This document shows, piece by piece, positions 33,801-39,817 of a DNA stretch of 64,000 bases. Positions within the stretch are counted from its first letter, which is position 1. The number at the start of each line of letters is the position of its first letter. The notes beneath the pieces were generated by a model, which ran no database searches, was not told the DNA's origin, and worked only from the letters and a program-made list of their open reading frames with translations. The stretch covers positions 13,702,001 through 13,766,000 of the forward strand of contig OZ231126.1 in assembly GCA_965153355.1 (NCBI GenBank), in the 5' to 3' direction. Both the position numbers and the translations under genes were made by a program. Source of the stretch: Flaccisagitta enflata. Lineage: Eukaryota.

Positions 33801-36800
33801 TCTAAAGTTGATTTTTTTTTCGCTGTCTGTAAATGAATGGCTGAGATGAACATTAAGCAACATTGCTGTATCAGAGGAAATCTAAATTTGGCTTATTGCT
33901 CAGAGTAACCTCAACACAATCAATGTATCATCCTTTGGGTTTCCTAATCAATATTGTTAGTGTCAGTTCTTCCACCAGTACTTCAGTAATCTTTGATTGT
34001 TGCTTTTGTACAAAATTTTGTGTATACTAAATAGTATAAGCCTGTCCGACCCTATACTGATGAGGTATGTAGTCTAGCTGATAGTTTTGTCGGGTAAGCT
34101 CTTTTTTTGTCATTTGCAAAGGAAAATTGTGAGCAATCCGGAGTAAACACCATTGAAAGCTTGAAAGGTCCTTCGTAAATTGGAGAATTGTGGCCTCCTT
34201 TTGTAAGGGCAATGTTGTTTTAACTTTCATCCATGTTACCAATCATTTCTTATCTTGTTTTTTTTTTTTCATCCTACTCTAGGCGCCATACCTTTCATTT
34301 CTTTGCTTGATTTACCCCCTTTTTAGGTGCCATACAAAGTGCCGGGCAGTTTGGCAGAGGTGGACGTGTGATCCCCGAGGTTTGTATCTACTTCGACCGG
34401 AAGCTTTTACGTGGAAATCGTGCGTCAAAAGTGGCAGCAGATCGCTTCAAAGCATACGACTCGCCCAATTTTTCACCACTTGTTGAGATGGAGGTTAAAG
34501 AGCAGGTGATTCTTCAATTTTCATGTCATATGTATGCCATATCTCACTGTTTGGTGAGATTTTGAGGCATTATGACGTTTCATAGGCAAAGGCATACTGT
34601 ACGCTTTAGATGGTCCACGGCACCTGTGCCCCGCCTAAGTAGGTTGTGCTTGAGGTTGGAGGGGAAGCAGGGCAGCAACCCTGAAGGGGTCAATGACCTA
34701 TGCTTTAACACATATGGGGAATTTGCCTCCTTCTCCTTCTTCTCCGCCCCTTCCTCCTCCTCCATCCCTCCCCCTCAAATCTCAGTCTCGAGGCTCAAAT
34801 TCCAGTCTCGAGGCTCAAATTCCAGTCTCGAGGCCCAAATCCCAGTTCTGGGGCCCAAACCCCAGCCTTGAGGCCCAAATCCTAGCCTCAAGGCCCAAAT
34901 CCTGACCTGGAGGCCCAGATTTCAGCCTTGACGCCCTGAGACTGGGATTTGGACCTCGAGACTGGAATTTGAACCTCGAGACTGAGATTTGAGGGGGGGG
35001 GACAGAGAAGAAGGAGGAGAAGGAGGAGGAGAAAGCATAGGTCATCGACCCCTTTGGGGCCGCTGCCCTTAAACCACAGAAATAGTTACCTTACTATAAT
35101 AAGAAAACAAAATGGAAATAGGCAGCAGAGGTTCCCGGGCGGCGACAAACCATACACAACCCTTCCATCTACGACAATATCAACCCAGTATGTTATTTGC
35201 CTCCCTTCAAAAAGGTAAATTGGAAACTCATTCGTGAGGTTGCTAACAATGGCGATACAGCCAAGGAAAGCCTCTCAGTTCAACAACTTGGAGATATTCA
35301 GAGTAAAGTTGGCTTCTTACGAATCTGGCCATCAATTGCAACTGGAACCGGGCCAAACAATTCCATCGCTGACTTCTTCCAGCAAATGAAAGGCGTCGTC
35401 CTTCAAACCTTTGGCACGGGAAATGCGCCAAGTGATGGTATAAGTGAATGTATTAATATATGAATTGACGAATGAATGATCAAATAAATGCATGCATGAA
35501 AGAGCAATTGAATGAATGAATGAATGAATGAATGAATGAATGAATGAATGAATGAATGAATGAATGAATGAATGAATGAATGACTATATAAATGAATGAA
35601 AGAATAAATGAATGAATAAATGAATGAATGAGTGAATGAATGAATGAATGAATGAATGAATGAATGAATGAATGAATGAATGAATGAATGAATGAATGAA
35701 TGAATGAATAAGTGAATGAATGAATAAACAAATTAATGAGTGAATGAAAAAAACGAAGCTAGGAATGACTGAAAGAAAGAATGAAAAGAGAAATGAATGA
35801 ATAAATGTGTAAATAATTGAATGACTGATTAATTGATTGATTGAAAGAATAAATGTAAGAATGTATGTATGAATTGAATAATAAATGAATAAATGAATAA
35901 GTGAATGAATGAATGAATGAATGAATGAATGAATGAATGAATGAATGAATGAATGTATGAATGAATGAACCTACGAATGATTGTTTGATTGAAAAAAAAT
36001 GAATTAATGATTGATTGTATGAGTATATGAATAGATGAAAGAATGAAGGAATAATCGATTTCATTAATGTATGAATGAATGAATAGATGAATGAATGATT
36101 GAATAAATGAAATTGGCTGATATGCTGGTACAAATGTTTGGACAATTACAACTTCTATCATGATTCTTTGTAGTTTTGAGACCATCTGATTTCATAAAAC
36201 AACATGAATTTAAAAAGATACTGTTTTGATTTATCTCTCAGACGGGTTTATGACAGCATTAAAAAAAGCCAAGGACAACAACGTGACCGTGGTTAATATT
36301 TCTCAGTGTCCTCACGGAAGTGTAACTCGAAGCTATGCTGCGAGGTAAACAACAACATTAACAAAAACAACAACAACAACAACAACAACAACAACAACAA
36401 CAACAACAACAACAACAACAACAACAACAACAACAACAACAACAACAACAACAACGACAACGACGACAATAACGACAATAATGACGACAATAAACAACAA
36501 CAACAACAACAACAACAACAACAACAACAACAACAACAACAACAACAACAACAACAACAACAACAACAACAACAACAACAACAACAACAACAACAACAAC
36601 AACAAAAACAACAACAACACAAAAACAACAACAACAACAACAAAAACAGCAAAAAAAAAAACAACAGCAACAACTAAAACAACAAAAGCAACAACAACAA
36701 CAACAATTGCGACGTTGGAATCAATATTGATTTATCATGTTATCAATTCATCCCACGCACAAACACTATCACATACACAGTGATGCACTCGCTAAAGAAA

Positions 36801-39800: not shown

Positions 39801-39817
39801 ACGAAGTTGAAGAGTGA
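30709..39817 (+). CDS. Type I L-asparaginase (AnsA/ASPG family), probably secreted, with an inserted kringle domain; 11 exons, about 477 aa
   Basis: Exons 30709-30817, 31504-31604, 31908-32095, 32516-32682, 34327-34505, 35215-35437, 36242-36344, 36781-36872, 37945-38029, 38409-38527, 39750-39817. All introns are GT-AG with matching phases and the sum is 1434 nt with no internal stop. Family motifs occur in order: [87 protein letters not shown]. An upstream in-frame ATG lies at 30682. Confidence 0.9.
31504..31604 (+). CDS. Asparaginase exon 2 (GGTIGM, catalytic Thr)
   Basis: ttgcag|GTGGAACGATTGGAATG ... GCG|gtaagt; [34 protein letters not shown]. Confidence 0.92.
31908..32095 (+). CDS. Asparaginase exon 3 (DSS motif)
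   Basis: tttacag| ... [31 protein letters not shown]|gtaaga, phase 0 to 2. Confidence 0.9.
32516..32682 (+). CDS. Asparaginase exon 4 (GTDT motif)
   Basis: (CT)n-cag| [56 protein letters not shown]|gtaaga. Confidence 0.95.
32866..33610. mobile_element. Palindromic MITE in asparaginase intron 4
   Basis: CAGCTGGGTTTCCTACGATT ... AATTGTAGGAAACTCAGCTG; arms pair over most of the length. Confidence 0.8.
34327..34505 (+). CDS. Asparaginase exon 5
   Basis: ttttag| [59 protein letters not shown] |gtgatt. Confidence 0.93.
35215..35437 (+). CDS. Asparaginase exon 6
   Basis: aaag| VNWKLIRE...[10 protein letters not shown]...[18 protein letters not shown]|gtataa. Confidence 0.9.
35470..36110. repeat. 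(ATGA)n microsatellite in asparaginase intron 6
   Basis: Read directly. Confidence 0.95.
36242..36344 (+). CDS. Asparaginase exon 7
   Basis: ctctcag| [35 protein letters not shown]|gtaaac. Confidence 0.9.
36346..36705. repeat. (AAC)n microsatellite forming most of asparaginase intron 7
   Basis: Read directly. Confidence 0.95.
36781..36872 (+). CDS. Asparaginase exon 8
   Basis: cacag| [31 protein letters not shown]|gtaatt (phase 1). Confidence 0.92.
36965..37232. repeat. (GT)n microsatellite
   Basis: Read directly. Confidence 0.95.
37270..37780. mobile_element. Palindromic MITE-like element in asparaginase intron 8
   Basis: TTATGAAATCTTGTTAAGGGCGCTTTTTGAAAA / TTTTCAAAAAGCGCCCTTGACAAGATTTCATAA; ends approximate. 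Confidence 0.6.
37945..38029 (+). CDS. Kringle domain N-half exon (asparaginase exon 9)
   Basis: caacag| [30 protein letters not shown]|gtacga; kringle YRG-x-T-x-SG-x-CQ-x-W pattern; phase 1 in, phase 2 out; absent from the ORF track. Confidence 0.85.
38409..38527 (+). CDS. Kringle domain C-half exon (asparaginase exon 10)
   Basis: ttcag| [40 protein letters not shown]|gtaagt; kringle NYCRN..PWCYT..EYC..C signature; phase 2 in, phase 1 out. Confidence 0.9.
38641..39418. mobile_element. TA-flanked MITE (CTACGCGAAT termini) hosting the Transib-like MITE
   Basis: TA|CTACGCGAATAAAA ... TTTTATTCGCGTGG|TA; related to the copies at 7741-8170 and 55164-55576. Confidence 0.75.
38879..39120. mobile_element. 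Transib-like MITE with RSS-like termini and a 5-bp TSD
   Basis: CTCTC|CACCTTG ATCTGGGGGCTG AGAAAAACC ... GGTTTTTCT CAGCCCCCAGAT CAAGGTG|CTCTC; nearly the whole element is palindromic. Confidence 0.75.
39750..39817 (+). CDS. Asparaginase terminal exon 11
   Basis: ctacggcag| (D)[26 protein letters not shown] is the conserved C-terminal motif of AnsA-type asparaginases. Confidence 0.88.

Follow-up and report, generated by a model that had tools for sequence, protein, structure and literature searches.

A gene on the forward strand of the Flaccisagitta enflata genome probably encodes a secreted type I L-asparaginase into which a kringle has been inserted by exon shuffling, with the kringle present in at least a major isoform. 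The gene lies in a 64,000-nt stretch (assembly GCA_965153355.1, contig OZ231126.1, positions 13,702,001 to 13,766,000), which we analyzed as a whole and hereafter call the window; all coordinates refer to it. The window is eukaryotic nuclear DNA with a G+C content of ~31–48% in 2-kb windows, many microsatellites, short exons and GT-AG introns. The asparaginase gene (30709–39817, + strand) has 11 exons, all of its 10 introns are GT-AG, and the exons join into one frame of 477 amino acids (aa) that opens with ATG and closes with TGA. Two aspects are unusual, namely that the host is an ancient, cytosolic enzyme of metabolism and that the module lies within a domain; the kringle itself and class 1-1 shuffling are of known kinds.

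The kringle is encoded by two exons between the last two exons of the asparaginase. Exon 9 (37945–38029, +; acceptor ..aacag/, donor ATC/gtacga, with the slash marking the exon border) carries the N-terminal half (CC..YRGT..CQKW..) and exon 10 (38409–38527, +; acceptor ..ttcag/, donor AAG/gtaagt) the C-terminal half (..NYCRN..GPWCYT..EYC..C). Vertebrate kringles are also two-exon units. Together the two exons form a cassette of 204 nt, or 68 codons, split within the kringle by the phase-2 intron 9 (38030–38408, +). On the host side, exon 8 (36781–36872, +; acceptor ..acag/, donor AAG/gtaatt) ends in phase 1, exon 9 runs from phase 1 to phase 2, exon 10 from phase 2 to phase 1, and exon 11 (39750–39817, +; acceptor ..ggcag/) starts in phase 1. 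The flanking introns 8 (36873–37944, +) and 10 (38528–39749, +) are thus both phase 1; the former contains a (GT)n microsatellite (36965–37238) and a palindromic element resembling a miniature inverted-repeat transposable element (MITE; 37286–37768), and the latter a second palindromic MITE-like element (38879–39120). Exon joining, splice sites and Pfam confirm the coordinates, junctions, phases, frame and domain identities that the initial annotation, made from the letters alone, had given for exons 8 to 11. By the computed phases the cassette is a class 1-1 mobile module, with phase-1 introns on both sides and a host intron of phase 1. In the excerpted text of PMC8001218, class 1-1 modules are those that were spread by exon shuffling into extracellular proteins, and the layout found here fits the rules given in those excerpts, as had been proposed when the cassette was first noticed.

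Pfam was run on single exons, and the kringle exons were joined by coordinates for local comparisons. Exon 10 alone matches the Pfam Kringle profile (PF00051) at positions 42–74 with an E value of 1.4e-9 and 38.5 bits, above the cut-off of 34.3 bits; exon 9 alone matches positions 7–29 (E value 1.3e-4), at 22.6 bits below the same cut-off, and is also detected by tblastn. When joined, the kringle (residues 388–456 of the model) reaches an E value of ~1e-23 in a comparison with 179 kringles assembled locally and is 53–57% identical over 65–70 aa to fish plasminogen kringles. The best solved match for exon 10 is human plasminogen kringle 1 (4a5t_S, 125–163). Neither exon contains a stop or a frameshift. 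There are seven Cys, comprising the six canonical ones and an extra one adjoining the first (CC); the canonical Cys, at model residues 389/390, 406, 428, 439, 450 and 454, align with those of plasminogen kringles and are predicted to form 1–6, 2–4 and 3–5 disulfides. No other kringle was found in the 64 kb by tblastn with eight kringle proteins, and likewise no partner-domain exon.

The six-Cys pattern and the YRG, CQxW, NYCRN, GPWCYT and EYC motifs are shared with the kringles (PF00051) of plasminogen, apolipoprotein(a), HGF and prothrombin. Whereas those kringles form a tandem N-terminal array before a protease, the kringle here is a single copy within another domain; it is also ~12 residues shorter than the known ones, in addition to having the extra Cys beside the first. 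The distance from first to last Cys is ~66 aa (median of the reference kringles, 78), and 6–8 residues are deleted in the loop that contains the junction of exons 9 and 10. Aligned to plasminogen kringle 1, the module retains the Trp and the two Tyr that make up the aromatic trough. The Asp residues of D-x-D abut, the residue between them being gone, a further residue is lacking ahead of the conserved Tyr, and a basic residue is either substituted or absent. These aromatic, acidic and basic positions are presumably the ones that bind lysine. With the spacing of the pocket altered in this alignment, lysine binding by the kringle is uncertain.

Comparison with solved and modeled relatives points to the site of insertion within the fold. 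Exon 8, which encodes the penultimate helix of the C-terminal domain, aligns best to 9s7y_A (310–336), 4r8k_A and 2ocd_A (289–316). The last of these is the Vibrio AnsA of 337 aa, which has 21 residues left after the part aligned to exon 8, compared with the 22 aa of exon 11; exon 11 alone (21 aa) gave no match in the PDB. The initial annotation had described the motifs on the two sides of the cassette as near neighbors in the family, and in the 2ocd_A alignment they are direct neighbors. The family alignment places the junction of exons 8 and 11 between ..YLLSQ and the last helix. In the AlphaFold model of the homologue P0087 (mean predicted local distance difference test score, 89.6), residues 302–313 and 319–326 form helices with a five-residue loop between them, and the junction falls inside this loop. 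Judged by this model, the kringle occupies precisely the loop that connects the two final helices of the C-terminal domain, with no predicted loss of host residues.

The second feature that sets the gene apart is its leader. Exon 1 (30709–30817, +; donor CCG/gtaagc) contains the ATG, a signal-peptide-like leader (30709–30774) and the first strand of the N-terminal domain (..VYVLYT), and ends in phase 1. It is the sole upstream open reading frame (ORF) within 11.5 kb that ends in the pattern hydrophobic residue, x, T or S followed by G/GT (phase 1) and that matches the N terminus of the family. The leader consists of ~22 uncharged residues, with Ser and Ala at positions −3 and −1 ahead of Asp23, and the most hydrophobic 11-aa window of the entire protein (Kyte–Doolittle) is found within it, at residues 7–17. 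Such leaders are rare in the family: among 200 type I asparaginases with a recognizable N terminus (240 fetched; mostly bacterial), one has a hydrophobic leader. The product also carries five N-X-S/T sequons. The initial annotation had suggested an extracellular enzyme but had not reported this leader, which adds support to the idea, although secretion itself is something that we infer.

The remainder of the gene is a type I L-asparaginase throughout. Exons 2 to 5 together cover positions 7–184 of the 193 of the Pfam Asparaginase N-terminal domain (PF00710). Exon 2 (31504–31604, +) carries the GGTIGM active-site threonine motif (profile positions 7–44), and exon 3 (31908–32095, +) continues the N-terminal domain and has an insert that is specific to the lineage when compared with bacterial AnsA; both are weaker partial Pfam matches, and both are also placed by their splice sites. 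Exon 4 (32516–32682, +), with the GTDTM motif block, is the most conserved exon (81.3 bits, E value 8.4e-23), and exon 5 (34327–34505, +), with the RGNRASK block, matches profile positions 130–184 at 38.3 bits, compared with a cut-off of 22.5 bits. Exons 6 to 8 cover positions 16–103 of the 114 of Asparaginase_C (PF17763), with E values of 1.4e-3 to 1.9e-6, each exon singly being below the cut-off of 34.6 bits. Exon 6 (35215–35437, +) encodes the inter-domain linker and then the start of the C-terminal domain (..FGTGNAP), exon 7 (36242–36344, +) the part with ..NISQC.. (profile positions 38–70), and exon 8 matches positions 76–103 (E value 1.5e-5). Exon 11 encodes the last asparaginase helix (..QNLRGE..), and the stop codon TGA, at 39817, follows directly after the family tail.

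An alignment to 28 type I asparaginases is collinear to the end, and of its 53 invariant columns the model retains 50, T14, T91, D92 and K163 (P0087 numbering) among them; the three changed columns are G184, I187 and G220. We take the two Thr, the Asp and the Lys to be the catalytic residues. On this alignment, the asparaginase looks catalytically intact.

Exon 4 is 75–78% identical to many bacterial AnsA proteins, the upper value being reached by gammaproteobacterial AnsA. Horizontal transfer from bacteria was considered and rejected, given that the full-length identity to gammaproteobacterial AnsA is just ~39–40% despite the 78% over exon 4. These identities suggest that the likeness to AnsA is ordinary deep conservation and reflects no recent transfer. 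With bacterial AnsA (2ocd, 2p2d, 2him) and the catalytic domain of animal ASPG (9s7y, 4r8k, 5dnc) the gene shares both Pfam domains and the ..QNLRGE.. tail, and to these it adds the hydrophobic leader, the kringle in the last helix-loop-helix and extra inserts in exons 2 to 3 and in exon 6. No ankyrin core motif was found in the six frames of the window with a regular expression, and the gene, having no ankyrin tail, is not of the ASPG or 60-kDa lysophospholipase architecture. Exported asparaginases of the same superfamily are the secreted or periplasmic type II enzymes, which we take to include the periplasmic bacterial AnsB and the yeast cell-wall Asp3; in contrast, the gene here is type I in every search and has a binding module. 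A second asparaginase gene was not found in the 64 kb by tblastn, and Rfam gave no matches in the whole window.

From these features we propose one gene for a secreted, probably N-glycosylated type I L-asparaginase that is predicted to be catalytically intact. A class 1-1 two-exon kringle cassette would have entered a phase-1 intron by intronic recombination, that is, by exon shuffling. The ends of a kringle are tied together by its first-to-last disulfide, and the module could therefore protrude from a short surface loop and leave the host fold intact. Enzymes of type I act as dimers or tetramers, and the assembled enzyme would carry two to four kringles. It may then dock multivalently on an extracellular protein or matrix ligand, where asparagine hydrolysis would be concentrated; the family's glutaminase and lysophospholipase side activities would be localized likewise. 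This picture of a lineage-specific, extracellular type I asparaginase, with the kringle inside the C-terminal domain and not at an end, that depletes asparagine where it docks by several ligand contacts at once, is one that we put forward tentatively. Its targets outside the cell could be microbes, parasites, prey tissue or the nitrogen supply of symbionts; the roles in immunity, digestion or venom that the initial annotation proposed are speculation.

An asparaginase–kringle protein was sought in several sequence collections. In a local cross-check, 0 of 208 kringle proteins had an asparaginase domain and 0 of 240 asparaginases had a kringle. A search with exon 10 among the longer proteins of a 5.8-billion set returned 61 candidates, of which 59 passed; all were generic kringle proteins, none with PF00710. 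Exon 4 gave 4036 matches in the protein database, and the 120 listed were all PF00710 with or without PF17763, with no kringle chimera among them. When the 110-aa stop-to-stop ORF around exon 10 was compared with 1.84 billion representatives, the best 150 of 645 matches covered the kringle part only, and no relative's copy of exon 10 was among them. The same ORF gave 166 pattern matches in metagenome contigs, none of which was confirmed. Exon 6 gave nine loci in metagenome contigs (L001–L009), six at 31–40% identity and three at 72–78% over 16–18 residues, with no close relative. The ESM Atlas, searched with exon 10 and with common kringle partners excluded, returned kringle clusters only (best score, 0.88).

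Relatives of the gene itself were found with exon 5. It gave 315 matches, and the top three among the best 120 listed are unspliced genomic ORFs of relatives (P0180–P0182), 93–97% identical in aa over exon 5 (compared with 34311–34565 of the window) and too short to reach the kringle. The intron-coded flank of P0182 is still like that of the window, and those of P0180 and P0181 are unrelated to it. By these sequences, public assemblies appear to hold relatives of at least two divergence levels. A separate observation concerns P0060, a database protein of 688 aa with two tandem type I asparaginase copies, which resembles a eukaryotic gene model produced by fusion or tandem duplication; at the position of the kringle here it has 10 residues.

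No asparaginase–kringle fusion was found among the papers listed by full-text literature searches, and limited searches found neither an earlier insertion of a kringle into an enzyme domain nor an animal-type asparaginase in the secretory pathway. One paper that turned up for a secreted invertebrate asparaginase, PMC13619432, concerns aspartylglucosaminidase in its excerpted text. The initial annotation knew of no such architecture, and none appeared among the matches listed from the protein collections or in the literature covered here.

Several observations weigh against a secreted enzyme that carries the kringle. A basic n-region is absent from the leader, the kringle is short and its Cys count is odd, and the donor of exon 9 is weak, though the indispensable exon 6 has an equally weak donor. 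An orthologue with the same layout was not recovered in the protein and metagenome searches. A class 1-1 cassette would be in frame by chance in ~1 in 5 cases, an estimate from the four of nine host introns in phase 1 and a factor of one half for strand. In one poly-A RNA run from the same study, 0 of ~12.2 million reads sampled (~6 in 100 of the run) fell on 37300–40600, a stretch chosen as free of long microsatellites; this result carries no weight as a test. Lastly, skipping of exons 9 and 10 keeps the frame and the same junction Asp codon, so the frame does not force inclusion of the kringle.

This last property fits an unlikely alternative, in which the kringle exons occur in alternative isoforms only and the main mRNA joins 36872 to 39750, giving a secreted asparaginase of 409 aa. 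Conceivable minor forms would contain the cassette, end after exon 10 by read-through of intron 10, or join exon 1 to exon 9 as a small leader–kringle protein. The weak donor of exon 9 fits such a pattern of splicing, as do the phase-1 ends of exons 1, 4, 6 and 8, each of which could feed exon 9 in frame; read-through from exon 10 would meet an in-frame stop after 11 codons (38560–38562) and then AATAAA (38581–38586). The donor of exon 10, however, matches the consensus perfectly, making frequent read-through less likely, and the acceptors of both kringle exons have good pyrimidine tracts. An independent kringle transcript with its start in intron 8 was rejected, given that no usable first exon is present there. 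Exon 9 lacks a start codon, nothing in intron 8 is plausible as an alternative first exon, and no other kringle or partner-domain exon is present in the window; hence, the cassette needs an upstream phase-1 exon of the asparaginase gene. The kringle exons could also be silent, as part of a kringle gene that reached the intron by recent transposition or duplication and is never spliced, leaving an ordinary asparaginase with a leader. We consider this improbable. A match in phase and strand that would arise by chance in ~1 in 5 cases, the missing orthologue and the intronic surroundings rich in mobile and repetitive DNA (both MITE-like palindromes and the (GT)n array) would be in keeping with such a relic, and the sampled RNA reads, within the limit given above, lent no support to splicing of the kringle. 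Yet both exons keep an open frame, all hallmark residues and four splice sites, and a silent relic would leave the family-rare export leader of the host unexplained.

Assembly error is very improbable as a source of the layout. A kringle segment from elsewhere might have been joined through the flanking microsatellites, and long simple repeats do lie just upstream, (AAC)n at 36348–36706 and (GT)n at 36965–37238. However, exon 11 follows 1.2 kb past the kringle, 37300–41397 is free of tandem arrays, and strand and phase fit; with no long tandem repeat between the kringle and exon 11, a misjoin would need two breakpoints. Overall, we favor, with somewhat better than even confidence, the secreted type I asparaginase with a kringle inserted by exon shuffling, mainly because the same gene encodes both an export leader and a disulfide-rich module of extracellular type, two features that are mutually supportive.

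Further features were noted in and around the gene. The two MITE-like palindromes on either side of the cassette represent different families and are not connected by a direct repeat; the terminal inverted arms of the second are 40 nt long and perfect. Long microsatellites lie in or beside the gene, namely (TGAA)167 (35445–36111), (AAC)120, the (GT)n array of 274 nt in intron 8 and (AAGA)192 (44738–45504), and these could hamper assembly and read mapping at the locus. Upstream of the asparaginase are exons of an ionotropic glutamate receptor-type gene (9163–9438 and 11499–12491, +); an exon open over 331 codons matches Pfam Lig_chan (PF00060, E value 2.1e-23), and the earlier exon weakly matches PF00497 and PF10613 (ligand-binding lobe). 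A long minisatellite-like array at 14000–16600 contains, on both strands, degenerate Cys/His-rich repeat frames of up to 393 codons (..CVTHIRRKLG.. on one strand) with no Pfam match. Downstream, 46189–50622 (+) holds five copies of a ~890-bp unit, each with a near-identical open frame of 84 codons and no Pfam match. An open frame of 389 codons at 58394–59560 (−), whose C-terminal end carries a repeat rich in Arg, Asp and Tyr, gave no Pfam match and may belong to a mobile element.

If the kringle exons are silent, the locus would be an ordinary gene with a stray intronic module, and it would remain unusual for a type I asparaginase to have an export leader. If the kringle is part of the protein, the gene would be a clean and datable case of exon shuffling, in which a mobile extracellular module entered a loop of an old metabolic enzyme, and the shuffling would have been accompanied by a change of compartment, from the cytosol to the secretory pathway. 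The protein would be a natural design for a tethered asparaginase, of interest given that clearance and off-target effects limit the therapeutic use of these enzymes. It would also make extracellular asparagine depletion a possible physiological tool in an animal lineage.

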